Virus record (IMG/VR): IMGVR_UViG_3300016474_000281
Coordinates: 1 to 64,000 of that record
Source of the DNA: a virus
DNA: 64,000 bases
Direction: 5' to 3' (one strand)
Shown: piece by piece, positions 5,619-23,080 of the stretch
Layout: each line of letters opens with the position of its first letter
How positions within the stretch are numbered: position 1 is the stretch's first letter
The notes under the pieces: model-generated
Database searches by the model: none
Seen by the model: the letters and a program-made list of their open reading frames with translations, nothing else
Told to the model about the DNA's origin: nothing
Translations under genes and position numbers: made by a program

Positions 5619-5620
5619 TC

Positions 5621-11781: not shown

Positions 11782-11813
11782 AGGAGGCTGGGTTAGTACC
11801 TGGTCTCCTTTTT
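11782..11813 (+). terminator. rho-independent terminator
   Basis: aggaggctggg pairs with cctggtctcct (3 G-T wobbles), loop ttagta, then TTTTT. Confidence 0.7.
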
Positions 11814-12484: not shown

Positions 12485-12588
12485 TGAAGATAAAAACCAC
12501 AGGAATACACTACAAGAAGTTTTACAAAGAATATTATTGGATCACAAACTCTAGTAAAGTGGGTAGTACATATTTAATTATACATTGA
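12484..12588 (+). CDS. micro-ORF B5 (34 aa)
   Basis: pep MKIKTTGIHYKKFYKEYYWITNSSKVGSTYLIIH; 3p junction TGATG. Confidence 0.5.
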   Translation: MKIKTTGIHYKKFYKEYYWITNSSKVGSTYLIIH

Positions 12589-12695
12589 TGGAAATCAAAA
12601 TAATATTTAAGCAATATCTTAGTGCTAAAGGGTTATTTTTCCCTAGTGTCAAGTATATATCTTCTAACGTAACTACATTATTTTACATAGTATGA
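12588..12695 (+). CDS. micro-ORF B6 (35 aa)
   Basis: pep MEIKIIFKQYLSAKGLFFPSVKYISSNVTTLFYIV; 3p junction ATGA. Confidence 0.5.
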   Translation: MEIKIIFKQYLSAKGLFFPSVKYISSNVTTLFYIV

Positions 12696-12802
12696 AAATC
12701 AAATGGTATCTTATGACTAGAATAGATATTAAAGTACATTCTACATACAGCAGTCTTACCCTAATGAATGATTCTTTAAGTACTGTAATGTTACTGATAT
12801 GA
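12692..12802 (+). CDS. micro-ORF B7 (36 aa), paralog of B12
   Basis: pep MKIKWYLMTRIDIKVHSTYSSLTLMNDSLSTVMLLI; 3p junction ATGA. Confidence 0.55.
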   Translation: MKIKWYLMTRIDIKVHSTYSSLTLMNDSLSTVMLLI

Positions 12803-12936
12803 AAGTAACTTTAAGACTAGTAGGAAGTTGTTATCTAAACAAAAAGTTTTACGTATGGTATTCAATAAAGCATTATGTTATGTGGAATACTATGAACAAA
12901 CAAATACACTGTTCAAATACATTTATGTTAATATGA
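12799..12936 (+). CDS. micro-ORF B8 (45 aa), paralog of B13
   Basis: pep MKVTLRLVGSCYLNKKFYVWYSIKHYVMWNTMNKQIHCSNTFMLI; 3p junction ATGA. Confidence 0.55.
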   Translation: MKVTLRLVGSCYLNKKFYVWYSIKHYVMWNTMNKQIHCSNTFMLI

Positions 12937-12962
12937 AAGTAGCTTTATTAGATGTGAGATGA
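12933..12962 (+). pseudogene. micro-ORF B9, 9-aa stump of a unit
   Basis: pep MKVALLDVR; normal ATGA junctions on both sides but the body is deleted. Confidence 0.4.
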
Positions 12963-13063
12963 AAATAAAAATTTCAGCAATACACGATAACAAGTTTTAT
13001 TATGAACATTCTTGGTTTATAGAAGGTTACAAAGGGTTTAGTGTACATTTAATTACAAACTGA
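12959..13063 (+). CDS. micro-ORF B10 (34 aa)
   Basis: pep MKIKISAIHDNKFYYEHSWFIEGYKGFSVHLITN; 3p junction TGATG. Confidence 0.5.
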   Translation: MKIKISAIHDNKFYYEHSWFIEGYKGFSVHLITN

Positions 13064-13179
13064 TGGAGTTAAAACTAACAGCAAAACACTATCATGTATC
13101 TGAAGATACGTGGAAGCTAGTAGATGTGTATTTTGGTTTAAAAAGTAAGTACATAGGCACTGAAATTTTACTAATATGA
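13063..13179 (+). CDS. micro-ORF B11 (38 aa)
   Basis: pep MELKLTAKHYHVSEDTWKLVDVYFGLKSKYIGTEILLI; 3p junction ATGA. Confidence 0.5.
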   Translation: MELKLTAKHYHVSEDTWKLVDVYFGLKSKYIGTEILLI

Positions 13180-13292
13180 AGATTACCTGGAAACTTATGA
13201 CCAGATTTGGTACTAAAGTACATTCTACATATAGCAATGTCAAGTTAATAGATGATAACATGAGTACTGCAATCTTATTGATATGGAAATAA
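13176..13292 (+). CDS. micro-ORF B12 (38 aa), paralog of B7
   Basis: pep MKITWKLMTRFGTKVHSTYSNVKLIDDNMSTAILLIWK; 3p junction ATGGAAATAA. Confidence 0.55.
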   Translation: MKITWKLMTRFGTKVHSTYSNVKLIDDNMSTAILLIWK

Positions 13293-13426
13293 CTTTAAAG
13301 ATAACTGGAGGTTGCTGTACAAACAAGAAGTACATTTTACTTCATTCAGCAAAATATTACGCTACTTGGCTTGGTAGAAAAGATAAACAGTTAGCTGATT
13401 GTTCATATATATTTACAATGATATGA
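13283..13426 (+). CDS. micro-ORF B13 (47 aa), paralog of B8
   Basis: pep MEITLKITGGCCTNKKYILLHSAKYYATWLGRKDKQLADCSYIFTMI; 3p junction ATGA. Confidence 0.55.
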   Translation: MEITLKITGGCCTNKKYILLHSAKYYATWLGRKDKQLADCSYIFTMI

Positions 13427-13584
13427 GACTACATAGAGAATACGGTTTTGAAGACATGGACATAGAGATACTTGTGTATGGAGGTTACTTTCATAACACT
13501 AAGCTTGGCATAGATCCGTATAAAATACTCAATGATTTTCGTAGACAGTATGAAACTCGTTCAACAATACTTACTTTAGTATGA
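13423..13584 (+). CDS. micro-ORF B14 (53 aa)
   Basis: pep MRLHREYGFEDMDIEILVYGGYFHNTKLGIDPYKILNDFRRQYETRSTILTLV; track ORF 13399-13584 trimmed to the ATG; 3p junction ATGA. Confidence 0.55.
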   Translation: MRLHREYGFEDMDIEILVYGGYFHNTKLGIDPYKILNDFRRQYETRSTILTLV

Positions 13585-13733
13585 GATTAGATAGATTATT
13601 AGGTGAAACTGATATCATCACTGCCAAAGGTAGTTATTTTAACATGCACTTCAGCAATGAAGCTAACTTAAGTTGGAGGTGTACACTTAGGCTTGCTTAT
13701 TTACTCAAATCTATAATGTTTACAATGATATGA
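13581..13733 (+). CDS. micro-ORF B15 (50 aa)
   Basis: pep MRLDRLLGETDIITAKGSYFNMHFSNEANLSWRCTLRLAYLLKSIMFTMI; 3p junction ATGA. Confidence 0.55.
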   Translation: MRLDRLLGETDIITAKGSYFNMHFSNEANLSWRCTLRLAYLLKSIMFTMI

Positions 13734-13882
13734 ATCTAAATGATTTTTTTGGTATATCTGGAGCTGGACATATTTCAAAAATGATTCAGATGAAAAGGTT
13801 TCCAACACTAATGATGCATCTTGAACTCAAGAACAGAATAGTAAAAGATTTAGGAGCTATAACTATACTAAAATGGAACTAA
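13730..13882 (+). CDS. micro-ORF B16 (50 aa)
   Basis: pep MNLNDFFGISGAGHISKMIQMKRFPTLMMHLELKNRIVKDLGAITILKWN; 3p junction ATGGAACTAA. Confidence 0.55.
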   Translation: MNLNDFFGISGAGHISKMIQMKRFPTLMMHLELKNRIVKDLGAITILKWN

Positions 13883-14016
13883 AAGTATTACGTAAGTCAG
13901 GAGCTGGATATTACTCAGAGCCTTTCAAAAAAGTTACTGAAATTGTATTTAAGAGTTATACTCCATACAGGTATAACGTAGCAAAAAATATAAGCATAAT
14001 AACTATACTGAGATGA
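13873..14016 (+). CDS. micro-ORF B17 (47 aa), tandem twin of B18
   Basis: pep MELKVLRKSGAGYYSEPFKKVTEIVFKSYTPYRYNVAKNISIITILR; 3p junction ATGA. Confidence 0.6.
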   Translation: MELKVLRKSGAGYYSEPFKKVTEIVFKSYTPYRYNVAKNISIITILR

Positions 14017-14162
14017 ACTTAAAAGTGTCACGTAAGTCAGGAGGTGGATACTTTACACAACCTTTTTTAGTAAGAAATGACATTGTGTTAATGAGTTATG
14101 TTTCATACAAGTTTAACGCAACAAAAGATACAAGCTTAATAACTATATTGATATGGAAGTAA
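14013..14162 (+). CDS. micro-ORF B18 (49 aa), tandem twin of B17
   Basis: pep MNLKVSRKSGGGYFTQPFLVRNDIVLMSYVSYKFNATKDTSLITILIWK; 3p junction ATGGAAGTAA. Confidence 0.6.
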   Translation: MNLKVSRKSGGGYFTQPFLVRNDIVLMSYVSYKFNATKDTSLITILIWK

Positions 14163-14278
14163 GAGTTAATAAAGTAGGTGGTGCTTACTACAGTTTAAAA
14201 GATAAACAAACTGATGTGTATTACTGCAGACATTTTCATTCAACACAAACTAATGGAACTAAATTAGTACTGCAATGA
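14153..14278 (+). CDS. micro-ORF B19 (41 aa)
   Basis: pep MEVRVNKVGGAYYSLKDKQTDVYYCRHFHSTQTNGTKLVLQ; 3p junction ATGA. Confidence 0.55.
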   Translation: MEVRVNKVGGAYYSLKDKQTDVYYCRHFHSTQTNGTKLVLQ

Positions 14279-14430
14279 AGGTAGTATCTAAGACATTTGT
14301 AAGTGGTCATTTTAACGAGCAGCTTAAAGATTTAGTTGGGAAGAATATTTTTATTCTCAGGTTCTTACCTTCAAAAGTAGATGGAGATATTATTAACTGT
14401 GTTACTAGTGTAAATTTTATTTCAATATGA
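14275..14430 (+). CDS. micro-ORF B20 (51 aa)
   Basis: pep MKVVSKTFVSGHFNEQLKDLVGKNIFILRFLPSKVDGDIINCVTSVNFISI; 3p junction ATGA. Confidence 0.55.
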   Translation: MKVVSKTFVSGHFNEQLKDLVGKNIFILRFLPSKVDGDIINCVTSVNFISI

Positions 14431-14537
14431 AATTAAAAAGACTTCCTATAACAAGTTACACTCACATAAGAATGGAACCCATATATTTTAGACAATTTAC
14501 TTCTAGCTTAGGAGGTGTTACAACAGTAGTGATATGA
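14427..14537 (+). CDS. micro-ORF B21 (36 aa)
   Basis: pep MKLKRLPITSYTHIRMEPIYFRQFTSSLGGVTTVVI; 3p junction ATGA. Confidence 0.5.
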   Translation: MKLKRLPITSYTHIRMEPIYFRQFTSSLGGVTTVVI

Positions 14538-14674
14538 GACTGTACGCATTAAATGTAGTTGGTTGTTATTGGAACAATAAAGGCGATAGTTTCACAATGT
14601 TAAAAAAAAAGCACTACCTTATTTATGTTTACGCAGGTAGCATAGTTGATTCAACAATATTAATATGCAATTAG
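14534..14674 (+). CDS. micro-ORF B22 (46 aa)
   Basis: pep MRLYALNVVGCYWNNKGDSFTMLKKKHYLIYVYAGSIVDSTILICN; 3p junction ATGCAATTAG. Confidence 0.55.
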   Translation: MRLYALNVVGCYWNNKGDSFTMLKKKHYLIYVYAGSIVDSTILICN

Positions 14675-14811
14675 ATCAGGTTGTATTACTTGGAGGAGAT
14701 GCTTGTGATAAATTTAGACATTTTGTTTCAAATTCAATATTGTCTGGATACTATCAAGACCCTGACTATAAACATAAACTTGACTCAATAATCTTAATGT
14801 TATGGAAATAA
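14665..14811 (+). CDS. micro-ORF B23 (48 aa)
   Basis: pep MQLDQVVLLGGDACDKFRHFVSNSILSGYYQDPDYKHKLDSIILMLWK; 3p junction ATGGAAATAA. Confidence 0.55.
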   Translation: MQLDQVVLLGGDACDKFRHFVSNSILSGYYQDPDYKHKLDSIILMLWK

Positions 14812-14957
14812 ATATAGTTAAAATGCTAGGTGGAGCTATATACAACGATAATACTCTTTTGTCAGATTCAAAGAGGAATACACATTCATCTTGGGATTTC
14901 ATATCTTTTGACACAGCTTATGATATACAGTCAACAATCTTGATGTTATGGAGTTAA
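14802..14957 (+). CDS. micro-ORF B24 (51 aa)
   Basis: pep MEINIVKMLGGAIYNDNTLLSDSKRNTHSSWDFISFDTAYDIQSTILMLWS; 3p junction ATGGAGTTAA. Confidence 0.55.
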   Translation: MEINIVKMLGGAIYNDNTLLSDSKRNTHSSWDFISFDTAYDIQSTILMLWS

Positions 14958-15091
14958 ATAGAATAGTGATTGTAGGTGGTAATATGTTTACCGAAAACAG
15001 TCTATATCAGTTTACTAAAGCTTTTCAATTCTATTCGTTACAAGTGAAACTTACTCCTCGTAGTTCAACAACATTCATACTATGGAAATAG
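14948..15091 (+). CDS. micro-ORF B25 (47 aa)
   Basis: pep MELNRIVIVGGNMFTENSLYQFTKAFQFYSLQVKLTPRSSTTFILWK; 3p junction ATGGAAATAG. Confidence 0.55.
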   Translation: MELNRIVIVGGNMFTENSLYQFTKAFQFYSLQVKLTPRSSTTFILWK

Positions 15092-15240
15092 ATAAAATCA
15101 TGATGACAGGTGGAGATATATATGAACGTTTTCCTTACATGTTTATTAAAATATATCCATTTTACTCAGTATTGTTTAATACAAACAAAACTGATTCAAC
15201 AACATTTATACTATGGGGCTGTTTAGAAAAATACAAATAA
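15082..15240 (+). CDS. micro-ORF B26 (52 aa)
   Basis: pep MEIDKIMMTGGDIYERFPYMFIKIYPFYSVLFNTNKTDSTTFILWGCLEKYK; 28-nt overlap with B27. Confidence 0.55.
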   Translation: MEIDKIMMTGGDIYERFPYMFIKIYPFYSVLFNTNKTDSTTFILWGCLEKYK

Positions 15241-15344
15241 GTGGTGGTTGTTTTAGAAATCATTTGTTTGGTTATGAACCTTTATGCGGGTGGGAATACA
15301 AAAGAATTGACCAAGATGAATCTATTATATTTTGTTTAACCTAA
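15213..15344 (+). CDS. micro-ORF B27 (43 aa), twin of B28
   Basis: pep MGLFRKIQISGGCFRNHLFGYEPLCGWEYKRIDQDESIIFCLT; 10-nt gap before B28. Confidence 0.55.
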   Translation: MGLFRKIQISGGCFRNHLFGYEPLCGWEYKRIDQDESIIFCLT

Positions 15345-15354
15345 TAAAACTATT

Positions 15355-15486
15355 ATGAATCTTTTTAAAAGAATAATCTATGGAGGTGGGCGTGGTAGTC
15401 ATTCAAAAAGTATAAACCTGGTTTTACATTTGTATAACTTCAATAAGGTTAAACCAGATGAATCAATTATAACTGTTTGTTTATGA
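15355..15486 (+). CDS. micro-ORF B28 (43 aa), twin of B27
   Basis: pep MNLFKRIIYGGGRGSHSKSINLVLHLYNFNKVKPDESIITVCL; 3p junction ATGA. Confidence 0.55.
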   Translation: MNLFKRIIYGGGRGSHSKSINLVLHLYNFNKVKPDESIITVCL

Positions 15487-15611
15487 AGATAGCAATGATG
15501 AAGAGAGGTTTATCTTTCTTTAATACAAGAACAAATCCAGCTTTTCATCCCTGGACTTACTCAGCTAAAATGACAAATGTACTTATTGGAACAAAACTTA
15601 TCTTGATATGA
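15483..15611 (+). CDS. micro-ORF B29 (42 aa)
   Basis: pep MKIAMMKRGLSFFNTRTNPAFHPWTYSAKMTNVLIGTKLILI; 3p junction ATGA. Confidence 0.5.
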   Translation: MKIAMMKRGLSFFNTRTNPAFHPWTYSAKMTNVLIGTKLILI

Positions 15612-15757
15612 AACTAAAAAGTAGAATAATTGGAGAAGGTTACGGCATGTCTAAAAGAGAAATAAGAGATAACAAAGGAAACTCTTATTACCACGCGATG
15701 AAGTTTAAAGATGGTTCTAAAGCAGCTTCAGTAAACATTATACTAACATGGAACTAG
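15608..15757 (+). CDS. micro-ORF B30 (49 aa)
   Basis: pep MKLKSRIIGEGYGMSKREIRDNKGNSYYHAMKFKDGSKAASVNIILTWN; 3p junction ATGGAACTAG. Confidence 0.55.
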   Translation: MKLKSRIIGEGYGMSKREIRDNKGNSYYHAMKFKDGSKAASVNIILTWN

Positions 15758-15888
15758 ATACAATAAGTAAAGGTTACAGTTTTAAATCACCTTTAGCAAA
15801 CATCACCTACATGACCTTAGTTAAAGATACTAAGGTCAAGTTTAGTACGTTGGCAACAAGTAGTATGTTGCTAATATTGACACGATGA
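15748..15888 (+). CDS. micro-ORF B31 (46 aa)
   Basis: pep MELDTISKGYSFKSPLANITYMTLVKDTKVKFSTLATSSMLLILTR; 3p junction ATGA. Confidence 0.55.
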   Translation: MELDTISKGYSFKSPLANITYMTLVKDTKVKFSTLATSSMLLILTR

Positions 15889-16019
15889 GAATTGGAAACA
15901 ACTTATTTGGAGGTAGTTATTATATGCCTAAGAATATAAAGATAGTTGCAGATTATCACGGTGTATTAAGACATACAGCTTCATCCCTTAGAAGTACAAC
16001 ACTTATCTTATGGAACTAA
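15885..16019 (+). CDS. micro-ORF B32 (44 aa)
   Basis: pep MRIGNNLFGGSYYMPKNIKIVADYHGVLRHTASSLRSTTLILWN; 3p junction ATGGAACTAA. Confidence 0.55.
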   Translation: MRIGNNLFGGSYYMPKNIKIVADYHGVLRHTASSLRSTTLILWN

Positions 16020-16156
16020 AAACAGATACGTTTGGTAGTTGCTATTTTACAGATGGACAGTGGCACAAAGACTTTATGTTAGACGCTAACTTTATCTCTA
16101 TTAGTGAAAGTGTTCAGACTCAAAGTAAAAGCGCAATACTAGTACTATGGAATTAA
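16010..16156 (+). CDS. micro-ORF B33 (48 aa)
   Basis: pep MELKTDTFGSCYFTDGQWHKDFMLDANFISISESVQTQSKSAILVLWN; 3p junction ATGGAATTAA. Confidence 0.6.
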   Translation: MELKTDTFGSCYFTDGQWHKDFMLDANFISISESVQTQSKSAILVLWN

Positions 16157-16305
16157 AGTTTGACATATCAGGAGGTAGTCACGCTACTACAGACTTAGTT
16201 AGTGTTCAAAAGAAATCTGTGTTTGACACAGACTTTAAAATTTTTAAAGCTAGGGAACTTCATGGACACAATCACATAAGTACAAATTTGATAGTATGGA
16301 ACTGA
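16147..16305 (+). CDS. micro-ORF B34 (52 aa)
   Basis: pep MELKFDISGGSHATTDLVSVQKKSVFDTDFKIFKARELHGHNHISTNLIVWN; 3p junction ATGGAACTGA. Confidence 0.6.
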   Translation: MELKFDISGGSHATTDLVSVQKKSVFDTDFKIFKARELHGHNHISTNLIVWN

Positions 16306-16445
16306 GAACTAACACACTAGGTAATTGCTACTGTACAAATAAGAATCACTATAAAGTGCCAATGGATAACACGACAAATTACGCTCCTATCAGAACATTC
16401 TTGATACTTAAAAATAGAGGTATAACACTAATACTATGGAACTAA
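16296..16445 (+). CDS. micro-ORF B35 (49 aa)
   Basis: pep MELRTNTLGNCYCTNKNHYKVPMDNTTNYAPIRTFLILKNRGITLILWN; 3p junction ATGGAACTAA. Confidence 0.6.
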   Translation: MELRTNTLGNCYCTNKNHYKVPMDNTTNYAPIRTFLILKNRGITLILWN

Positions 16446-16585
16446 CTGTTGATATATTTGGTAGTAGCTATGATATAGACTCACTTGAACATACAGTGTT
16501 TATAACAGAATTTAGTGTACTTATGCCTATATCAAGATGTTATGAAGTTAAAAATACAGGTGCAATCTTACTGTTATGGAACTAA
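16436..16585 (+). CDS. micro-ORF B36 (49 aa)
   Basis: pep MELTVDIFGSSYDIDSLEHTVFITEFSVLMPISRCYEVKNTGAILLLWN; 3p junction ATGGAACTAA. Confidence 0.6.
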   Translation: MELTVDIFGSSYDIDSLEHTVFITEFSVLMPISRCYEVKNTGAILLLWN

Positions 16586-16722
16586 AGTCTGATATATCAG
16601 GTGCTTCTTATGGAGGATCCTACTTTGTAGATAGGACAAGAATACAACTTAAACGATATGAATTTATATCTGCTGGAATTTGGAAAGGAAAAACTATATC
16701 AACACTATTTGTATGCAGTTAA
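16576..16722 (+). CDS. micro-ORF B37 (48 aa)
   Basis: pep MELKSDISGASYGGSYFVDRTRIQLKRYEFISAGIWKGKTISTLFVCS; 3p junction ATGCAGTTAA. Confidence 0.6.
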   Translation: MELKSDISGASYGGSYFVDRTRIQLKRYEFISAGIWKGKTISTLFVCS

Positions 16723-16856
16723 GAGTTAACTTCTTAGGAATATGCTACTCCAAATGTGAAGTAAGAGATAGAGATATTAAGTCACAACGTTGGGAGTTTG
16801 TAGAAATTAAATCTTGGAATCAAAAAAACATGTCAACGTTAATGTTATGTATTTAG
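16713..16856 (+). CDS. micro-ORF B38 (47 aa)
   Basis: pep MQLRVNFLGICYSKCEVRDRDIKSQRWEFVEIKSWNQKNMSTLMLCI; 3p junction ATGTATTTAG. Confidence 0.55.
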   Translation: MQLRVNFLGICYSKCEVRDRDIKSQRWEFVEIKSWNQKNMSTLMLCI

Positions 16857-16987
16857 ATTTTAAAATGATTGGAGCTGGGTATGAAACACATAACCAATGG
16901 TACAGGATTCAATCTGCTTTAATGGCATTTGGAATACACCGTGGATTTAACGATTTAGACGTAGGATTAAAAACAATACTAATATGA
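16847..16987 (+). CDS. micro-ORF B39 (46 aa)
   Basis: pep MYLDFKMIGAGYETHNQWYRIQSALMAFGIHRGFNDLDVGLKTILI; 3p junction ATGA. Confidence 0.55.
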   Translation: MYLDFKMIGAGYETHNQWYRIQSALMAFGIHRGFNDLDVGLKTILI

Positions 16988-17124
16988 AAATAGCATCAGA
17001 TTTAGCTGGAGGTTCTATATATAACACTAAAAGTATACTTAAAAGTGTATTTGTGCAACCAGCATTATACAGACAAAGAGAAAAAACCGATTCAACTAGA
17101 AGTAGTATAACTATACTAATATGA
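16984..17124 (+). CDS. micro-ORF B40 (46 aa)
   Basis: pep MKIASDLAGGSIYNTKSILKSVFVQPALYRQREKTDSTRSSITILI; 3p junction ATGA. Confidence 0.6.
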   Translation: MKIASDLAGGSIYNTKSILKSVFVQPALYRQREKTDSTRSSITILI

Positions 17125-17267
17125 AACTAAAAATAAATTATAGAGGCATTTCAATATTTCAAAAAGATACATATCTTGAATCTGCTAAGTCACAAAAAGG
17201 ACTGGCACAACAATATGTAAGCTTTTTTGTAAATAAAGTATTAAGTACAACAACATTACTAATATGA
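17121..17267 (+). CDS. micro-ORF B41 (48 aa)
   Basis: pep MKLKINYRGISIFQKDTYLESAKSQKGLAQQYVSFFVNKVLSTTTLLI; 3p junction ATGA. Confidence 0.55.
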   Translation: MKLKINYRGISIFQKDTYLESAKSQKGLAQQYVSFFVNKVLSTTTLLI

Positions 17268-17413
17268 AGTTACAATCAGATATTGTTGGTGGATCGTATG
17301 TACAGAATGAAGATTGTTTTAAACTTCATCTTATAGGTGTAGAGTATTCTGATACGTATACTTTTCTCAGCTATGTAGATAACAATGTAGGTTTAATATC
17401 ATTACTAGTATGA
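17264..17413 (+). CDS. micro-ORF B42 (49 aa)
   Basis: pep MKLQSDIVGGSYVQNEDCFKLHLIGVEYSDTYTFLSYVDNNVGLISLLV; 3p junction ATGA. Confidence 0.6.
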   Translation: MKLQSDIVGGSYVQNEDCFKLHLIGVEYSDTYTFLSYVDNNVGLISLLV

Positions 17414-17553
17414 AATTAAGATTAAATGGAACATTAACTTCTCCTTATATGGGAGCAAGCTGTTATACTGGAATCAATCATAAGAGACATAGTTCTTTAA
17501 AGCTGTGGGCACGTCTACCCAGGACTTGTGGAGCTTCAATTGTGTTGATATGA
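17410..17553 (+). CDS. micro-ORF B43 (47 aa)
   Basis: pep MKLRLNGTLTSPYMGASCYTGINHKRHSSLKLWARLPRTCGASIVLI; 3p junction ATGA. Confidence 0.55.
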   Translation: MKLRLNGTLTSPYMGASCYTGINHKRHSSLKLWARLPRTCGASIVLI

Positions 17554-17681
17554 AGTTGATAGAAAACTTAAACATATATCACTGTTCTTTAGACAAAGAA
17601 AGACAACTATGCCAATTCAAGTATAAACACCATTATGCTGTCATAAATGAATACATAAGTTGTTTAAACATACTGATATGA
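17550..17681 (+). CDS. micro-ORF B44 (43 aa)
   Basis: pep MKLIENLNIYHCSLDKERQLCQFKYKHHYAVINEYISCLNILI; 3p junction ATGA. Confidence 0.55.
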   Translation: MKLIENLNIYHCSLDKERQLCQFKYKHHYAVINEYISCLNILI

Positions 17682-17806
17682 AACTGAGTTATGAATGTTT
17701 TAAGAGAAGAGGCATATACTTTAAAGGATACTTGACATCACCTAAACATACTATTTTCATTCAAGTCAAGTATTGGGACGTAGGTATGTTAAACATATTG
17801 TCATAA
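17678..17806 (+). CDS. micro-ORF B45 (42 aa)
   Basis: pep MKLSYECFKRRGIYFKGYLTSPKHTIFIQVKYWDVGMLNILS; the 3p junction is ATAA because the next unit has lost its ATG. Confidence 0.5.
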   Translation: MKLSYECFKRRGIYFKGYLTSPKHTIFIQVKYWDVGMLNILS

Positions 17807-17928
17807 GATTGCATTACTTTATATTGTTTAGAGGATCAAGTTACAGTTCTATAAAAAAAGGTGTATTTGTAAATACGTCTCTTCGTAACAGAAACAAAAC
17901 TAAATCAATAATTACAGCACTTCTATGA
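17803..17928 (+). pseudogene. micro-ORF B46: intact 41-codon unit whose start codon is ATA (TTG two codons later)
   Basis: pep (I)RLHYFILFRGSSYSSIKKGVFVNTSLRNRNKTKSIITALL; tcATAAgat sits where other units have tcATGAaa; 3p junction ATGA. Confidence 0.4.
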
Positions 17929-18068
17929 ACATAATGTGTAAAATAAGAATGACTGGAGGAGACTATTCAACAGGACACTTTGATAGATTTATATATCAGA
18001 ATAAGTGTTACGAACATTACTTGGATCGTAGGTTTATTGAAACAGCTTTACAGCTTATTGTTATATGA
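17925..18068 (+). CDS. micro-ORF B47 (47 aa)
   Basis: pep MNIMCKIRMTGGDYSTGHFDRFIYQNKCYEHYLDRRFIETALQLIVI; 3p junction ATGA. Confidence 0.55.
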   Translation: MNIMCKIRMTGGDYSTGHFDRFIYQNKCYEHYLDRRFIETALQLIVI

Positions 18069-18112
18069 AACTTAATTCGTTATACACTATGAGACTTAAT
18101 CCGTTGTACACT
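18065..18112 (+). repeat. 2 x 24-bp tandem repeat (21/24 identical)
   Basis: atgaaacttaattcgttatacact (18065-18088) and atgagacttaatccgttgtacact (18089-18112). Confidence 0.9.
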
Positions 18113-18208
18113 ACAATTGTTTGTATAGGTATGCATAGGACATTAGCTTATTACCAGCCAATTACAAGATTAAGTTATGAAGATTCAATTATACTTGTAA
18201 CAATATGA
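18065..18208 (+). CDS. micro-ORF B48 (47 aa) with an internal 24-bp tandem duplication of its own start region
   Basis: pep MKLNSLYTMRLNPLYTTIVCIGMHRTLAYYQPITRLSYEDSIILVTI; 3p junction ATGA. Confidence 0.55.
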   Translation: MKLNSLYTMRLNPLYTTIVCIGMHRTLAYYQPITRLSYEDSIILVTI

Positions 18209-18351
18209 ATCTATCCTGGAACGATAACAACTGGCCTTTTACTATAATGGTTAGAGGAGGTAACTTTAAGCGATGTGCACACATGTACACTACTGGTATA
18301 TATGTAACTTACTCTTCAAAACATTACTCAGCTATACTAGTGACAACATGA
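18205..18351 (+). CDS. micro-ORF B49 (48 aa)
   Basis: pep MNLSWNDNNWPFTIMVRGGNFKRCAHMYTTGIYVTYSSKHYSAILVTT; 3p junction ATGA. Confidence 0.55.
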   Translation: MNLSWNDNNWPFTIMVRGGNFKRCAHMYTTGIYVTYSSKHYSAILVTT

Positions 18352-18485
18352 TACTAAATACATTTGTACAATTGAGAGGTACTTGTAACTGCCTGAGAAG
18401 AAAGACAAAAGATGGAGCTATTAGGAGAGGTGTATGGTTTAGCGCGCAAGTAAAATCTCACGGTTTACTACTGGTTTTAATTTAA
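18348..18485 (+). CDS. micro-ORF B50 (45 aa)
   Basis: pep MILNTFVQLRGTCNCLRRKTKDGAIRRGVWFSAQVKSHGLLLVLI; track ORF 18273-18485 trimmed to the ATG; 11-nt gap follows. Confidence 0.55.
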   Translation: MILNTFVQLRGTCNCLRRKTKDGAIRRGVWFSAQVKSHGLLLVLI

Positions 18486-18496
18486 ACAAACATAAG

Positions 18497-18643
18497 ATGA
18501 AATTAACTCAAGACAGTTTGTTGTTGCTATCTAAAGGTGGCCACTACTTAGGTAAGGAAAGTATTTTGGATCATGAAATATGTTATCTTTCATTCTTTCG
18601 TACAAAATACATTCACAAATCAATAACAACTATTTTAATATGA
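18497..18643 (+). CDS. micro-ORF B51 (48 aa)
   Basis: pep MKLTQDSLLLLSKGGHYLGKESILDHEICYLSFFRTKYIHKSITTILI; 3p junction ATGA. Confidence 0.6.
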   Translation: MKLTQDSLLLLSKGGHYLGKESILDHEICYLSFFRTKYIHKSITTILI

Positions 18644-18783
18644 AACTAGTGGAAAGTAGGAAGATAGGAATTTGTTTTAGATCCCGTCCTTTTGTAGCAG
18701 ATAGTGTGTCTGTATTTACAGGGTTTAACAACTTTACATTTCTTTTAGAAAATACATTAGGAACTTATTTAATACTGATATGA
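18640..18783 (+). CDS. micro-ORF B52 (47 aa)
   Basis: pep MKLVESRKIGICFRSRPFVADSVSVFTGFNNFTFLLENTLGTYLILI; track ORF 18580-18783 trimmed to the ATG; 3p junction ATGA. Confidence 0.55.
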   Translation: MKLVESRKIGICFRSRPFVADSVSVFTGFNNFTFLLENTLGTYLILI

Positions 18784-18908
18784 ATTTACACAGGTATCGT
18801 ATAGCTGGAATATCGTATAGACAGAAGTATAACATAGGGTTTATACCTTTTTTTGATAGCCTTAACAAAAGAGATGTTGATGAATCAATAACATTTATAC
18901 TGATATGA
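18780..18908 (+). CDS. micro-ORF B53 (42 aa)
   Basis: pep MNLHRYRIAGISYRQKYNIGFIPFFDSLNKRDVDESITFILI; 3p junction ATGA. Confidence 0.55.
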   Translation: MNLHRYRIAGISYRQKYNIGFIPFFDSLNKRDVDESITFILI

Positions 18909-19048
18909 ATTTAACTATAAAACTGAAACATTATCCGTTTTATCTTAAACAAGATAAGATGTATCAAGCTGATGTGGCTTCTGAAAAGTTAATTTTTAAA
19001 GTGACAGCACAGCATCATTCATACAGTGTGAAAGTGATTCTTGCTTAA
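18905..19048 (+). CDS. micro-ORF B54 (47 aa)
   Basis: pep MNLTIKLKHYPFYLKQDKMYQADVASEKLIFKVTAQHHSYSVKVILA; 16-nt gap follows. Confidence 0.5.
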   Translation: MNLTIKLKHYPFYLKQDKMYQADVASEKLIFKVTAQHHSYSVKVILA

Positions 19049-19064
19049 CACAAACAATACAGTT

Positions 19065-19202
19065 ATGCCGTTGTTGTTTCAAAGAATAGGGTTATCCTAC
19101 ATGAGTTTAAACCACTATGAAATAATTACTAATATGAAGTTGCGAGCTGTTGTTTGTAAAGCAGGTAACTTTAGCTCAAAAATGATATTGACATGGAACT
19201 AG
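19065..19202 (+). CDS. micro-ORF B55 (45 aa, two short units fused in frame)
   Basis: pep MPLLFQRIGLSYMSLNHYEIITNMKLRAVVCKAGNFSSKMILTWN; an internal attactaatatgaag junction is read through; 3p junction ATGGAACTAG. Confidence 0.45.
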   Translation: MPLLFQRIGLSYMSLNHYEIITNMKLRAVVCKAGNFSSKMILTWN

Positions 19203-19336
19203 CTATAGACTTTATAGGAGCTACACATTCTCAAAGTGAATTTCATGTAAAGATTTACATGAACCCCGTACAGTTTTACAGTTTTTTTATATTTGAAAAA
19301 GATGAACTTAGGTCTGCAATATTTAATTTGATGTAA
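19193..19336 (+). CDS. micro-ORF B56 (47 aa), last unit of array B
   Basis: pep MELAIDFIGATHSQSEFHVKIYMNPVQFYSFFIFEKDELRSAIFNLM. Confidence 0.5.
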   Translation: MELAIDFIGATHSQSEFHVKIYMNPVQFYSFFIFEKDELRSAIFNLM

Positions 19337-19343
19337 AAGTTTA

Positions 19344-19374
19344 TTTGCAACATTGACTTAAATAGTTATCTTTG
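19344..19374 (+). promoter_or_regulatory. Bacteroidota-type promoter (TTTG-N19-TAtcTTTG) 4 nt upstream of an ATG
   Basis: TTTG at 19344-19347 and TATCTTTG at 19367-19374 with a 19-nt spacer; ATG at 19379 implies a leaderless or near-leaderless mRNA. Confidence 0.5.
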
Positions 19375-19378
19375 CAGC

Positions 19379-19618
19379 ATGAGTAGTGTAGAAACAGCTA
19401 TAGTAGCTATCATCGAACAAAGAGCTAAGAAAGGGTTGGAGACCTATGGTGTAACCCTGGATAGAACTGATTATCCTGTTGAACAAGGTATATCAGATGC
19501 TATTGAAGAAGCACTTGACCTAGCTATATACTTACAGAAATGTAAGCAAGAAATAGCTAAATTGAGAAGTTACATTCAAGAACTAGAAGTAAAGATTAAA
19601 ACGTATGAGCAACATTAA
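19379..19618 (+). CDS. hypothetical helical protein (79 aa)
   Basis: ATG ORF; EEALDLAIYL is faintly reminiscent of all-alpha NTP-pyrophosphohydrolase folds (weak). Confidence 0.6.
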   Translation: MSSVETAIVAIIEQRAKKGLETYGVTLDRTDYPVEQGISDAIEEALDLAIYLQKCKQEIAKLRSYIQELEVKIKTYEQH

Positions 19619-19802
19619 ACTGTGGGAGATAGCTGTATTCTTGTTACCTGTAGCTTTGGTATATACTCCATTGCGTAAACAGTTTATAGCTGCATCAAAG
19701 TGGTTGAGAGATACTACTATAAAGAACGTGAAACATTTGAAGTTGGTGTTACCTGTGGCTTTGATAGCTTTAGTGTACATCATATACAAAGATAGAAAAT
19801 AA
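19605..19802 (+). CDS. small membrane protein (65 aa, two hydrophobic helices)
   Basis: WEIAVFLLPVALVY and LVLPVALIALVYII; 14-nt overlap with the upstream gene. Confidence 0.5.
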   Translation: MSNIKLWEIAVFLLPVALVYTPLRKQFIAASKWLRDTTIKNVKHLKLVLPVALIALVYIIYKDRK

Positions 19803-19833
19803 CATATTTTTAGGTCATTACGGTTTTTCTTGT

Positions 19834-19907
19834 AACAGAGTAGCTTAAATGGTAGAGCACAAGACTCATAATCTTGATGGATGCAGGTTCAAATCCTGTC
19901 TTTGTTA
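19834..19907 (+). tRNA. tRNA with anticodon CAT (elongator Met or lysidine-dependent Ile2); no encoded CCA
   Basis: Hand-folded cloverleaf: acceptor aacagag/ctttgtt, D-arm gctt-aaatggta-gagc, anticodon arm caaga-ctCATaa-tcttg, T-arm gcagg-ttcaaat-cctgt. The anticodon stem lacks the three G-C pairs of initiator tRNA. Ends are +/- 2 nt. Confidence 0.75.
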
Positions 19908-19919
19908 CTAATTTAAACT

Positions 19920-20309
19920 ATGAACAACAACATTCACAAATTAGCACAACATTACCTTAATACAGCTATATCACTGTCTAACCTATCTAAGGTAGAAACT
20001 TTGCAAGTAGGTGCAGTGATAGTAGATACACAGGGTAACATAGTTGGAGTTGGATACAATTCAGCTCCTTTCTACTTAGAAGACCCACAAGATTTATATG
20101 AGACTACAGTTCATGCTGAAGAGATGGCTTTATTATCTAGAAGTGATCAACCTCACTTGTTAGTATGTACTCATGCACCTTGTTTATCTTGTGCAAGTAA
20201 GATGTTCTTAGCTGGAGTGAAAGAAGTGTGGTACAAGAACCCTTACAAAAACGATAAAGGACTACAATACTTAGAAAGATTAGGTATAAAAACGAAACAA
20301 TATGAATGA
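19920..20309 (+). CDS. dCMP/cytidine deaminase, zinc-binding (129 aa)
   Basis: VHAEEMAL (HAE zinc/catalytic motif) and PCLSCA (PCxxC). Confidence 0.85.
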   Translation: MNNNIHKLAQHYLNTAISLSNLSKVETLQVGAVIVDTQGNIVGVGYNSAPFYLEDPQDLYETTVHAEEMALLSRSDQPHLLVCTHAPCLSCASKMFLAGVKEVWYKNPYKNDKGLQYLERLGIKTKQYE

Positions 20310-21030
20310 TAGTAATGAGGTAGTGAACAAGAACAAGGTAGAGTTATTAGACTTTGCAGGATCAGACTTACATATAGCTGTAACTGCCTGGGCTTCTACT
20401 CATCTTGACTTAGGCTTAGTAAGTTCAGACAACATCAAGGAAAGGATACCTATGATGATTGATGCTATACTGAGTACAGTTTCAAGGAAAAGAACACCTG
20501 AAGAACTAATCAGGTTTTTAGGTTTGAACCAACACAGTTCTCCATTTAGGTCTAGTTGGTTTATGTTTGGTTTCCGTGAAGATGTAGCTACCCACATTCA
20601 TTTGTTAAAACATGTAGTGCTTATCTCGAATACTAATTCAGAATCAGCTAGGTACAAAGAAGTTAAAGACAAGATGTATCTACCTGAAGACTGGTTAGAC
20701 ACTGAAGTAGGTGAGTATTGGTATGACTTGTTGGAACTATACACTCAGATGGGGTTTGACTACTACCATAGATGTGTCAAAGAACTGATAGCTGCAGGGC
20801 ATGATAAAGCTAGAGTTAAAGAGACAGCCAGGTATTTCTTAACGATGAACTCACAAAGAGATGTTGTTAGAACACTTACTTTAGATGGGTTGATACAGTT
20901 GTATTACAAGAGAGGTCCTAAGAGCAAGTCACAAAAAGAAGTACAAAAGATAGTAGAAGACATGTTAAACGAGGTTAAAAATATTCCTGGAGAACCTTTT
21001 AAATATAGTCTTGAAGCATTTAATCTATGA
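20302..21030 (+). CDS. thyX: flavin-dependent thymidylate synthase ThyX-like, divergent (242 aa)
   Basis: NSESARY resembles the ThyX S-x-x-S-x-R-Y signature; the C-terminal RYFLTMNSQRDVVRTLTLDGLIQLYYKR....SQKEVQ parallels the ThyX helix; adjacent to dCMP deaminase. Confidence 0.6.
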   Translation: MNDSNEVVNKNKVELLDFAGSDLHIAVTAWASTHLDLGLVSSDNIKERIPMMIDAILSTVSRKRTPEELIRFLGLNQHSSPFRSSWFMFGFREDVATHIHLLKHVVLISNTNSESARYKEVKDKMYLPEDWLDTEVGEYWYDLLELYTQMGFDYYHRCVKELIAAGHDKARVKETARYFLTMNSQRDVVRTLTLDGLIQLYYKRGPKSKSQKEVQKIVEDMLNEVKNIPGEPFKYSLEAFNL

Positions 21031-21350
21031 GTGAAGAATATCTTAACGCTTTACAAGAGTGTAAGGATCATACTGTATTAGTTGAAGCTGCAATACGATT
21101 AGAGTCGTTGATAGATAGAACTGGATATAACTCTATGCAGGAATACTATAAAGAACAATTGAACATCTTGAATAAAAGAATTAAAGAACTTACCACTACT
21201 AACTATAAAGTAGGAGACAGGTTGTTTGACACTAAGTACAAACGTTATGTGAAAGTTATAGCTTGTGAAGGTAACGTATATACAGTGCAAAATGATAGAA
21301 AAAATATACAAGTTATCGAAGGTAAGTACTTGACAAAGCGAGGTAGTTAA
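21027..21350 (+). CDS. hypothetical protein (107 aa)
   Basis: ATGA-coupled ORF. Confidence 0.6.
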   Translation: MSEEYLNALQECKDHTVLVEAAIRLESLIDRTGYNSMQEYYKEQLNILNKRIKELTTTNYKVGDRLFDTKYKRYVKVIACEGNVYTVQNDRKNIQVIEGKYLTKRGS

Positions 21351-21384
21351 CTTATCTTTGTATTGCTTAGTTTCTTAACCTGTT

Positions 21385-21414
21385 GAGGGCTTCTGTAACA
21401 AGAAGCTCTTTTTT
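21385..21414 (+). terminator. rho-independent terminator
   Basis: gagggcttct pairs with agaagctctt (with wobbles), loop gtaaca, then TTTTTT. Confidence 0.7.
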
Positions 21415-21418
21415 GTCT

Positions 21419-21601
21419 ATGCTAGATACAGAACAAAAGTTGTGGAGGTTGTTTCACTTGCAACTATGCCACTATGGATTTGAACTACTGCCATATACAG
21501 ATGGCTTAATGTGGTTGTTATGTTTTGTATCTTTTATAGTTACAACTCCTCTCATGTTGTGGTACGTGCTAGAAGCATTTGTACACATGTTAACTCCCTG
21601 A
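21419..21601 (+). CDS. small membrane protein (60 aa) leading into array C
   Basis: Track ORF (TTG 21383) trimmed to ATG 21419, downstream of the terminator; hydrophobic LMWLLCFVSFIVTTPLMLWYVL; stop followed by ATG of C1 (TGATATG). Confidence 0.45.
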   Translation: MLDTEQKLWRLFHLQLCHYGFELLPYTDGLMWLLCFVSFIVTTPLMLWYVLEAFVHMLTP

Positions 21602-21602
21602 T

Positions 21603-21749
21603 ATGAAATTCACATTTAAAATGGCTGGTATAGCTGCGGTAACTGAAGTTTATTTTGTAAAAAATTATCACAACAAAGTACTTTTTACAACGGCTATACC
21701 TTGTAAAGTAAGAACTAGAAGTTGTGGTAATAAATTATTACTAGCGTGA
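21603..21749 (+). CDS. micro-ORF C1 (48 aa), twin of C2
   Basis: pep MKFTFKMAGIAAVTEVYFVKNYHNKVLFTTAIPCKVRTRSCGNKLLLA; the 3p junction is GTGA because the next start is GTG. Confidence 0.5.
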   Translation: MKFTFKMAGIAAVTEVYFVKNYHNKVLFTTAIPCKVRTRSCGNKLLLA

Positions 21750-21901
21750 AAATAACGTTAAAGATTAAATTAACTGGGGCAGGTGCTTTAACTGCAGTTT
21801 ATTACATAAAGAGTTATCAAAGTATAATAGTTTTTGAATCTGCTCTAAGCAATAATGTAAAATGTTCTTATTGGAGTAGTAAATTCTTACTAATATGCTA
21901 A
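21746..21901 (+). CDS. micro-ORF C2 (51 aa, GTG start)
   Basis: pep VKITLKIKLTGAGALTAVYYIKSYQSIIVFESALSNNVKCSYWSSKFLLIC; 7-nt overlap with C3. Confidence 0.4.
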   Translation: MKITLKIKLTGAGALTAVYYIKSYQSIIVFESALSNNVKCSYWSSKFLLIC

Positions 21902-22011
21902 TGATTTTCAATGCTGCTGCTTTAACTAATCATACTAAACTAGCTAATTACTTTCGTTTAAAAGCTAAACATGGAGGTAAGCTGGGTAGTTGTAAATTTA
22001 TACTAATATGA
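21895..22011 (+). CDS. micro-ORF C3 (38 aa)
   Basis: pep MLMIFNAAALTNHTKLANYFRLKAKHGGKLGSCKFILI; 3p junction ATGA. Confidence 0.5.
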   Translation: MLMIFNAAALTNHTKLANYFRLKAKHGGKLGSCKFILI

Positions 22012-22157
22012 ACATACCTATAAAAATGTCAGGTGCATCTTACATTAGTAATAAGATCACAACAAATTTAGAAAGGTCAAAACAAAGAGTATTAACAAAA
22101 AGCACCTTTCTACATGTTCACACAAGTAATGTTGGCAGTTTATTTTTATTGACATGA
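22008..22157 (+). CDS. micro-ORF C4 (49 aa), twin of C5
   Basis: pep MNIPIKMSGASYISNKITTNLERSKQRVLTKSTFLHVHTSNVGSLFLLT; 3p junction ATGA. Confidence 0.55.
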   Translation: MNIPIKMSGASYISNKITTNLERSKQRVLTKSTFLHVHTSNVGSLFLLT

Positions 22158-22300
22158 ACATACTCGTACACGTATTAGGTGCATCTCATATCAGCTACAG
22201 GTCTACCTTAGATACAGAAAGGTTAGGGTCAGGTAGACAAGGGTTTTGCGGTTTACATACTCGTGCAAATAATTGTAGTTTAATACTTATTTTGACATGA
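22154..22300 (+). CDS. micro-ORF C5 (48 aa), twin of C4
   Basis: pep MNILVHVLGASHISYRSTLDTERLGSGRQGFCGLHTRANNCSLILILT; 3p junction ATGA. Confidence 0.55.
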   Translation: MNILVHVLGASHISYRSTLDTERLGSGRQGFCGLHTRANNCSLILILT

Positions 22301-22461
22301 AACTAAAACTAAATGTCACAAGTATATCTTGTTGCAGTTGCATAGGTGCAGCTAAAAACTATAAACGTGTAACATGTTTTTTATCTAGCAAGGTTTCTTC
22401 ACCTGTATTAGTACAAAATGGTTTAATTCACGGTAGTATATTTGTATTAGCATGGAACTAA
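22297..22461 (+). CDS. micro-ORF C6 (54 aa)
   Basis: pep MKLKLNVTSISCCSCIGAAKNYKRVTCFLSSKVSSPVLVQNGLIHGSIFVLAWN; 3p junction ATGGAACTAA. Confidence 0.55.
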   Translation: MKLKLNVTSISCCSCIGAAKNYKRVTCFLSSKVSSPVLVQNGLIHGSIFVLAWN

Positions 22462-22622
22462 TGAGAATAGGGTATAGTGGTAATGTTGTTTTCCCCTGGG
22501 GAGGTAGTTGTCTATCAACTTTAAAGATAGGTTTTTCACAATACCCTATATCTAAAAGTAGCGGATATGCTATGCACGTGTTTAAAACACCACTGATAAG
22601 TACTTACTTAGTATTGATATGA
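22452..22622 (+). CDS. micro-ORF C7 (56 aa)
   Basis: pep MELMRIGYSGNVVFPWGGSCLSTLKIGFSQYPISKSSGYAMHVFKTPLISTYLVLI; 3p junction ATGA. Confidence 0.55.
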   Translation: MELMRIGYSGNVVFPWGGSCLSTLKIGFSQYPISKSSGYAMHVFKTPLISTYLVLI

Positions 22623-22753
22623 ACATATATACAATTGGTTTATATAAAGGTATGGTCTTTAAGAATACGCACAAAGACACTTTAAAGTGCTACCTACCTA
22701 GAGACATACTGTTTAAAACAACAGATTTAACATCATATTTTTTAATCACTTAA
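22619..22753 (+). CDS. micro-ORF C8 (44 aa), last unit of array C
   Basis: pep MNIYTIGLYKGMVFKNTHKDTLKCYLPRDILFKTTDLTSYFLIT. Confidence 0.5.
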   Translation: MNIYTIGLYKGMVFKNTHKDTLKCYLPRDILFKTTDLTSYFLIT

Positions 22754-22765: not shown

Positions 22766-23080
22766 ATGCAAACTGAGGTATTAGATTTGTTGAAACAGAA
22801 GTTACAGGAAATAGACCCTGGTAAATCTGTACATGTACGTTGTAACAACAAGTTAGTGTATGAATCTTTTTTAAAAGGTTTGTTATCTAATTCAAAAGAT
22901 TGGTTGAAAGAACGTAATGTTAGAGCTACACAAGCTGAAGACAAGAAGTACTACATTGAGATTGAGTTCTTGAGCAACCAAGAAGCTGTGACCATAGCCA
23001 AAGGGTTTATGGTTAAGTTGAAAGAATACATTGACATGAAGTTGTTAGAAATCGTTTACAGAGATTTAAATCCACAATGA
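22766..23080 (+). CDS. hypothetical protein (104 aa)
   Basis: ATG ORF; ATGA overlap with the next gene. Confidence 0.6.
   Translation: MQTEVLDLLKQKLQEIDPGKSVHVRCNNKLVYESFLKGLLSNSKDWLKERNVRATQAEDKKYYIEIEFLSNQEAVTIAKGFMVKLKEYIDMKLLEIVYRDLNPQ

Follow-up and report, generated by a model that had tools for sequence, protein, structure and literature searches.

Families of tandem paralogues that expand and contract are familiar from eukaryotic viruses, examples being the multigene families (MGF) 100/110/360/505 of African swine fever virus and the gene accordion formed by amplification of K3L in poxviruses. In bacteriophages, clusters of small genes serve the early takeover of the host, as in the class I genes of T7, the host-takeover module of SPO1 and the pre-early genes of T5, and anti-CRISPR genes are likewise found in operons. 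At least one product of the T4-type internal protein (IP) loci counteracts host defence. The nearest statement in the literature to the arrangement considered here concerns the Zeta group of crAss-like phages, in which regions of short open reading frames (ORFs) have been noted (Yutin et al. 2021, PMC7886860). Here we describe array C, a run of eight very short ORFs (units C1 to C8) at positions 21603-22753 of a 64,000-nucleotide (nt) stretch of viral DNA, the window, which comprises positions 1-64,000 of IMG/VR record IMGVR_UViG_3300016474_000281. Judged from their sequences, these units are part of an ORFan multigene family of about 70 copies. The best explanation, to which we give somewhat better than even weight, is that they are separately initiated, translationally coupled mini-genes forming a repertoire for interaction with the host that evolves by birth and death.

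An initial annotation of this DNA had reported eight ORFs of 38-56 amino acids (aa) in the interval, and all of them are present where it placed them. C1 (21603-21749, 48 aa) and C2 (21746-21901, 51 aa, with a GTG start) are twins, and are followed by C3 (21895-22011, 38 aa) and a second pair of twins, C4 (22008-22157, 49 aa) and C5 (22154-22300, 48 aa). C6 (22297-22461, 54 aa) is found in the window genome only, when this is compared with the related contigs L003, L010 and L017. C7 (22452-22622, 56 aa) and C8 (22619-22753, 44 aa, with a weak profile score) complete the array. The units lie on the same strand (+), tile the interval without gaps and reproduce the relative frames 0,2,1,0,2,1,0,2 that had been described. 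The preceding 60-aa ORF does abut the first start codon, its TGA being separated from the ATG of C1 by a single T. Neighbouring units share 4, 7 or 10 nt (ATGA, GTGA, ATGCTAA, ATGGAACTAA), so that every unit starts in the -1 frame of the preceding stop; the junction at C2 reads GTGA in the window and ATGA in its relatives. Across 21603-22753, the fraction covered by ATG-started ORFs of 36 aa or more is 0.87 on the + strand and 0 on the - strand, compared with a mean of 0.08 and a maximum of 0.45 in 300 dinucleotide shuffles. The tiling of array C is far beyond chance.

The same -1 shift at every junction could also be the mark of one long recoded gene, its units joined by reassignment of stop codons or by serial -1 frameshifting, and some crAss-like phages do reassign stop codons (PMC7886860). 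This is nevertheless very unlikely. All three stops are used in the family (TGA 38, TAA 20, TAG 8), and since the next unit lies in another frame, readthrough would run into a further stop only a few codons on. The junctions show no conserved slippery heptamer but a conserved ATG at each, and dozens of successive frameshifts would leave a negligible yield of product. Among 66 units, 60 start with ATG, four with TTG and two with GTG; 57 of 63 junctions overlap, and the unit-to-unit periods within the arrays range over 98-263 nt, all but three of them being equal to 2 modulo 3.

Evolutionary evidence that the units encode proteins comes from several directions. In three independent assemblies with 89-95% identity to the window, no stop interrupts the annotated frame of any C unit; the off-frames contain 4-10 stops each. 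Insertions and deletions relative to contigs L001-L003 are in-frame in our own reading of the alignments, and consist of 3 nt, 12 nt and one whole unit. The Nei-Gojobori ratio of non-synonymous to synonymous substitution rates (dN/dS) between the window and L010 is 0.52 for 12 orthologous units and 0.15 for seven flanking genes, with off-frame values for C1 and C8 of 0.8-1.1. By part of the unit, the ratio is 0.57 in the N-terminal portion, 0.47 in the centre and 0.65 in the tail, and pN/pS is 0.28 for C3 and 0.21 for C7. Conservation extends across codon families: a small residue seven from the unit end is either Ser, encoded by both TCN and AGY, or Gly, and the conserved Leu of the tail is specified by five different codons. 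Codon-position bias in the unit centres is gene-like, but weaker than in ordinary genes. Both local predicted RNA structure and GC content are minimal at the unit starts, as expected of initiation regions. The same arrangement recurs in independent assemblies and is thus not an assembly artefact. Taken together, these signatures show that the units are protein-coding and lend strong evolutionary support to the view that they would be translated.

By the same token, a non-coding tandem repeat, whether a structured RNA array, a set of iterons or a promoter array, is scarcely credible. It would suit the regular spacing of about 140 nt, the conserved junctions and the position beside replication genes. 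Against it stand all of the coding signatures just given, the absence of consensus pairs (0) when RNAalifold was applied to 20 units, and an Rfam scan that returned a tRNA only. The junction DNA itself is weakly conserved, in a pattern expected of hydrophobic codons.

The C units are homologous to those of two further arrays on the + strand of the window, array A (5344-6162, seven units, the last of which overlaps the start of a RadC-like gene) and array B (11825-19336, about 55 units of the same family, with an ORF coverage of 0.94). A profile built from B units only ranked seven of the eight C units, at 5.4-14.9 bits, above all controls (maximum 4.5 bits; Mann-Whitney p=4e-6), the controls being 62 ORFs of 36-60 aa taken in six frames from elsewhere in the window; with this profile C8 does not stand out from noise. 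The initial annotation had regarded array C as a distinct sub-family, a view that finds no support beyond two local duplications: the best partners of C3, C6, C7 and C8 are scattered B units, and units of contig L020 that occupy the same slot (the interval between the 60-aa membrane ORF and the downstream gene orf104) are no closer to the window's C units than to its B units. The tandem twins that it singled out are real (C1/C2, z about 10; C4/C5, z about 7), and together with the scattered partners they indicate that C belongs to the same family and has undergone two recent local duplications. The greater length of C units (48.5 vs 46.7 aa, p=0.15) and their richness in Cys and Ser (p=0.22), both of which had been claimed, amount to trends only.

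An alignment of 30 sequences from arrays B and C defines the family plan as M-x-L/I, Gly at position 9 (in at least 90%), a mid-unit aromatic residue and a hydrophobic tail, with the tail motif [S/G]-x-x-hydrophobic-x-L-hydrophobic. As had been proposed, the plan is largely kept in array C, with Gly at about position 9 in six to seven of the eight units; the exceptions are C3, which lacks the Gly, C6, which has Ser, and C8, which is atypical, and it is C3 and C8 that fit the plan poorly. About 70 units were counted across the three arrays against the 71 claimed, namely 66 of at least 36 aa and four of 30-34 aa that a first size cut-off of 36 aa had missed. The family total of about 70 units occupies some 9.5 kb, or about 9% of a genome of about 103 kb. 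Duplication is apparent within array B as well, where a block of three to four units at 12484-12936 is repeated at 12959-13426, with twins at 12692/13176 and 12799/13283 and 34-aa units at 12484/12959. Gene callers had annotated only about half of the units, and none is named in databases.

The unit products are basic (median isoelectric point 9.4) and poor in Glu, Asp, Pro and Ala. From a tight alignment of 30 paralogues, AlphaFold2 predicted strands at residues 6-13 and 41-48, with a block-mean predicted local distance difference test score (pLDDT) of about 83, and residues 18-35 at a pLDDT below 50. Tentatively, the model suggests that the N-terminal strand (M-x-L/I-x-...-G) may pair with the hydrophobic C-terminal strand around a variable loop of about 25 residues. 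Non-synonymous divergence in the unit centre is twice that of the tail, which is consistent with such a clasp-plus-loop picture. A more far-reaching proposal, which we regard as speculative and doubtful, is that the arrays encode combinatorial 'display' mini-proteins, in which a two-strand clasp presents a hypervariable loop of about 25 residues and dozens of products are made together from a single coupled polycistron as broad binders or decoys against host defence or quality-control proteins. Such a repertoire would be renewed continually by the shuffling of units, and the RadC-like JAB enzyme linked to arrays may be its partner or may process it. If this were true, it would be a new phage counter-defence strategy, relying on diversity and copy number over dedicated inhibitors.

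The evolution of the units could be followed in close relatives of the window genome (contigs L001-L003, L010 and L017), the DNA polymerase being 99% identical in L010; L003 stops short of the polymerase gene. Nucleotide identity to these relatives is 94-98% in flanking genes and 73-96% in units, corresponding to a divergence of 14.5% in units against 4.1% in flanks, a difference of about 3.5-fold. Synonymous as well as non-synonymous divergence is elevated in the units, and the transition/transversion ratio is 1.5 there compared with 2.8 in the flanks. C1 has diverged by 21-22% at the nucleotide level from the close relatives with its frame still open. C2, an ortholog of which (P0001) is present in three Logan assemblies, exists as three very different alleles among near-identical phages. 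C7 is identical at 53 of 56 aa in L010. C8 has an ortholog in the more distant contig L019 and carries a 12-nt in-frame indel in L003; on present sequences it is the oldest traceable unit of the slot, where a C4-like unit is one of only two in L019.

Raised divergence of both kinds, conserved ends and a variable centre might be expected of silent donor cassettes of the vls or pilS type, or of targets of retroelement hypermutation. A gene of the FGE-sulfatase family, with a C-type-lectin-like fold, lies directly upstream of array B (10799-11755), and such a gene also directly precedes the large array in L007, L011, L017, L021 and L022; the C-type-lectin fold is the usual target of diversity-generating retroelements. 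Both possibilities are nonetheless highly improbable. A six-frame translation of the window contains no expression-site copy outside the arrays, every unit keeps its own start and stop, and none of the database relatives of the units is part of a longer protein, each standing alone at 46-53 aa. Substitutions are balanced across the four bases, with no adenine-specific bias, and the window ORFs and annotations of relatives that were scanned yielded no reverse transcriptase.

Units are also gained and lost whole. L003, L010 and L017 lack C6, the body of C5 being joined directly to the C6 tail; a unit-exact indel of about 155-165 nt (our own reading of two alignments) separates them from the window, and its breakpoints fall within the tail boxes of C5 and C6. 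Array B of L017 spans about 5.9 kb compared with 7.5 kb in the window, with units missing, extra, duplicated or locally reordered and amino acid identities of 46-92%. Occupancy of the C slot varies over the wider group: there are no units (0) in L005, whose polymerase is 61% identical to that of the window, two in L019 (91.5%), five followed by RadC and then one more in L020 (73%), seven in L010, L017 and L003 (99%, for L010), and eight in the window. Array C is thus its own expanding and contracting locus within a conserved operon. The sequence comparisons show a family that evolves by birth and death, whole units being gained and lost by recombination between conserved unit ends, together with duplication of neighbours (C1/C2 and C4/C5) and replacement of alleles under moderate purifying selection (dN/dS about 0.5).

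It had been suggested from the initial annotation that either the nucleotide-metabolism island between arrays B and C was inserted into one ancestral array, or arrays seed new loci. Related genomes add detail to this choice: array C is a variable locus of its own, and an array-plus-RadC module is found at three different places in three lineages. A sister subclade (L007, L011 and L021-L023) has one contiguous array and no nucleotide-metabolism island, so that an ancestral single block may have been split later by the island. The interval in question (19337-21602) does contain the tRNA, dCMP deaminase and ThyX genes attributed to it, although not these only, as four further ORFs are found there. 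The tRNA is the single one in the window (19834-19908) and has a CAU anticodon; its A1-U72 pair and an anticodon stem that lacks a run of G-C pairs rule out an initiator. One candidate identity is a lysidine-type tRNA-Ile2, an idea prompted by the frequency of the AUA codon (6.2% in the arrays vs 2.6% in ordinary genes), and the alternative is an elongator tRNA-Met.

A detector of tiling mini-ORF chains, set to at least six units, found them in all lineages with a polymerase at least 61% identical and enough upstream DNA, these being the window, L005, L007/L023/L025, L010, L011/L022, L017, L020 and L021. Every chain shares its strand with the polymerase gene, and none of at least six units was found in about 40 loci from more distant phages. 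In IMG/VR, a pattern scan based on a single polymerase gave nothing, and it was a scan with a polymerase alignment that found the relatives. Every lineage of the clade has kept 40-70 units, which fall into two types. Subclade I (the window, L010/L017, L019, L020 and L005) has Gly-containing units with tails rich in Ile and Leu, and the gene order orf79, dCMP deaminase, (ThyX), orf107, 60-aa ORF, slot, orf104, hydrolase, polymerase. In subclade II (L007, L011 and L021-L023; polymerase 61-63%) an array of about 45-55 mini-ORFs of 31-60 aa, in the slot that array B occupies in the window (L007 3738-7790; L011 1545-7858), is located between the FGE-sulfatase-like gene and an AAA ATPase gene followed by hydrolase and polymerase. 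The units of this array have the tail ...L-K-[H/Y]-I, the Lys being invariant in a 48-unit alignment, and a TAAAA box occurs 9-13 nt before each start. No similarity between the window family and these 'LK[HY]I'-tailed arrays was found by profile-profile comparison or with hidden Markov models. The clade gives roughly a tenth of its genome to units whose architecture has been kept while their sequences turned over completely.

Some features of the public contigs probably reflect assembly. L004 (which begins at the equivalent of window position 18869), L005 and L020, independent contigs from metagenomes, all begin inside arrays, which suggests that the repeats break short-read assemblies and that public array lengths are possibly underestimated. 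In the European Nucleotide Archive (ENA) record, the polymerase of L017 (10766-12594) is split into 181 and 427 aa; it is intact at 609 aa (L018/L010 5124-6953; Logan assembly ERR9973195, whose orf104 protein is identical), and the split is probably an assembly frameshift.

The conserved setting of array C is an operon in the order hairpin, 60-aa membrane ORF, array C, orf104, cell-wall hydrolase and DNA polymerase. A terminator-like hairpin with a T-run (+ strand, 21385-21410) opens the transcription unit. It is followed by the 60-aa ORF, TM60 (+, 21419-21601), which contains one hydrophobic segment and is a putative membrane protein; it has no match in Pfam, and L005, L019, L020, L010 and L017 each have a homologue immediately before the slot. 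The downstream flank of the slot is orf104 (+, 22766-23080), after which come genes for Hydrolase_2 and the DNA polymerase. Comparable hairpins stand before arrays A (+, 5301-5327) and B (+, 11781-11810), and they belong to a set of seven strong + strand sites that also includes 2127-2153, 2915-2944, 9606-9634 and 10751-10774. A gene start follows closely after most of them (checked directly at 5301, 11781 and 21385 only), and they look like operon punctuation of the early/replication region. No strong site of this kind lies inside the arrays, the 7.5 kb of array B having only one weak 6-bp match at 13620, and there is no terminator-like site between C8 and the polymerase gene. Sigma-70-like promoters were fewer than in shuffled sequence. 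The gene arrangement shows that the C units would be transcribed in the direction of the replication genes, within a conserved operon.

This setting gives rise to the main rival explanation, which we consider unlikely though it deserves to be taken seriously. The units could be translated filler, that is, selfish or neutral repeats encoding inert peptides, whose frames are kept open to avoid polarity or mRNA decay. Where arrays stand in operons upstream of needed genes, such as orf104, the hydrolase and DNA polymerase genes or RadC, polarity could make a long untranslated stretch costly and so favour open frames; array C lies within such an operon, with nothing terminator-like between it and the polymerase module, and array A and the arrays of L005 and L020 run directly into RadC. 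The persistence of architecture alone through complete turnover of unit sequences, a composition that is partly like that of random ORFs and the weakness of the structure prediction would also suit filler. However, a dN/dS of about 0.5 in the unit frame compared with about 1 off-frame indicates amino acid constraint, as does the conservation of Gly9 and of the tail Ser/Gly across codon families, and the retention of 40-70 units in the face of unit-exact deletions is hard to understand without benefit in a size-limited genome. If filler were the right explanation, operon polarity alone could hold tens of frames open, a caution for the discovery of small ORFs by conservation.

Arrays and RadC-like genes are repeatedly coupled. 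In three lineages a RadC-like gene comes next after the last array unit, overlapping it or at most 6 nt away, and the three pairs occupy different genome positions: 6153-6590 in the window (+ strand, a JAB-domain gene matching Pfam PF04002 with E=4.7e-35 and coupled to the 3' end of array A), 893-1321 in L005 and 4343-4792 in L020. The protein has the motif HNHPSG...S..D (HxH...S..D), which we read as intact. In the sister subclade, where the units have no Gly motif, the 10 kb on either side of the arrays showed no RadC. This recurrent coupling offers a clue to what RadC proteins do in phages, which has long been unclear.

The linkage invites a further alternative, that the units are precursors of processed or exported peptides, the short G-G, G-A or G-S segment being a mini double-glycine leader or a site for the RadC-like JAB peptidase. 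Gly9 is nearly invariant, is often part of GG, GA or GS and in many units has a hydrophobic residue at -4, and the RadC-like gene follows arrays in three lineages of the GG type and was not seen near arrays of the non-GG subclade. We nevertheless think it improbable. None of 58 units (0/58) matched leader-peptide or bacteriocin models, Pfam or NCBIfam, even at E values up to 10, and known double-glycine leaders are much longer than 9-10 residues. A non-exhaustive Pfam scan of about 20 larger window ORFs, and the Pfam annotations of relatives, contained no peptidase-transporter or maturase, and neither array B nor array C is followed by RadC.

This leaves the coupled mini-genes of a host-interaction repertoire as the favoured explanation. 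The stop-start overlaps at the junctions would couple the translation of successive units in A/T-rich, weakly structured initiation regions. Their products would act on host components in the early or middle part of infection, in host takeover or counter-defence, and an arms race would maintain copy number and loop diversity, as in the multigene families and accordions of eukaryotic viruses. What points to the host is the rate of evolution, the flux in copy number, the retained architecture, the early-region setting, which includes a pentapeptide-repeat protein, and the linkage to RadC.

Several observations weigh against this explanation. The amino acid composition of the units is intermediate between that of real genes and that of random ORFs of this A/T-rich DNA, and conservation of the tail may stem in part from the initiation region of the next cistron rather than from the protein. 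Unit sequences are unrecognisable between lineages at 61% polymerase identity, and this turnover implies that selection may act on architecture and not on particular sequences, which fits filler or decoys as well as specific effectors. The AlphaFold2 model is weak overall (mean pLDDT 64, predicted template modelling score 0.33), a gappy alignment of 58 sequences gave no structure, and Foldseek found no neighbour in PDB or BFVD. Finally, the units have no homologue of known function in Pfam, NCBIfam, PHROGs or 1.84 billion representative proteins. Should the peptides prove functional, they would represent an unexplored class of phage mini-proteins and a natural gene accordion in a bacteriophage. 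With their many paralogues, metagenomic alleles and unit-exact changes, the arrays are a tractable system in which to study the birth, diversification and death of very small proteins.

The source genome is that of a divergent crAss-like phage of about 103 kb, as read from signature genes within the 64-kb window; the window is identical to a portion of a metagenome contig in ENA, and the longest contig carrying orf104 is 102,932 nt. The host is probably a freshwater Bacteroidota. The crAss cargo-protein domain PF25725 has a match at 61534-62799, and the - strand carries ORFs of 2391 and 2542 aa, inferred from size and position alone to be of the virion RNA polymerase type. On the + strand is a replication block with DnaB-type (DnaB_C) and SNF2-type (Helicase_C) helicases and a PolA-type polymerase. 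The best matches of the DNA polymerase are to crAss-like phages in GenBank, at only 26-29% identity, and blastn of the region against GenBank phages gave a tRNA match only and no close phage. Coding strand and GC skew change sign at about 35.7-36 kb, where the + early/replication block meets the - block of giant virion-type genes. A gene for a 235-aa pentapeptide-repeat protein (412-1119; PF00805, E=1e-57) stands at the start of the + strand block. Pentapeptide-repeat proteins are often DNA mimics.

No unit matched PHROGs, Pfam or NCBIfam models. When the unit alignment was run against 5.8 billion proteins in a word-indexed search, the only ortholog returned was P0001, and an exhaustive HMMER search of 1.84 billion representatives found only the units themselves or near-identical ones and one spurious repeat protein. 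The latter, the 151-aa P0129 (L015 10001-10456), resembled the N-terminal motif of the units through five copies of 'DIFGAGYFT[HY]LKAM' and was judged a chance low-complexity match; it sits on a gene-sparse 675-kb contig that was taken as eukaryotic. Full-text searches of the literature gave no description of such arrays, and the combination of mini-gene size, overlap-coupled polycistronic form and scale is new in phage.

The regions reported for the Zeta group (PMC7886860) are similar in being stretches of a crAss-like genome full of short, unrecognisable ORFs. Those ORFs, however, are described as being 'of different polarities' and received no analysis as a family, whereas the array units are on one strand, tile with overlaps, are paralogous and bear the marks of coding sequence; the polymerase of this phage is moreover only about 28% identical to those of GenBank crAss-like phages. 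Prochlorosins and other double-glycine-leader peptides resemble the units in comprising many paralogues of about 50 codons with conserved ends, a variable middle and a Gly-Gly-like motif. They differ in that a leader in the units would span no more than 9-10 residues, conservation also reaches the C-terminus and no model matches, and in that the scanned ORFs included no modifying enzyme or exporter.

Takeover and anti-defence clusters of other phages are likewise made up of small, co-directional, tightly packed and fast-evolving genes, mostly ORFans, that lie upstream of or among replication genes. Their genes are unrelated to one another, whereas the arrays consist of dozens of paralogues on one plan and, unlike anti-CRISPR operons, have no anti-CRISPR-associated regulator adjoining them. 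The T4-type IP loci share a short conserved terminal segment joined to a variable body, adjacent genes and a location in a hyperplastic region, although IP proteins are larger, few in number and expressed late, with a capsid-targeting sequence that is cleaved by the prohead protease. The multigene families and accordions of eukaryotic viruses are alike in their tandem paralogues, differences in copy number between close strains, unequal recombination, evolution faster than that of core genes and assumed role in host interaction. Unlike in those families, no member here has a known target, and the genes are of 30-60 codons, overlap from stop to start and would be co-translated from long polycistrons, with about 70 copies in a phage genome of about 103 kb.

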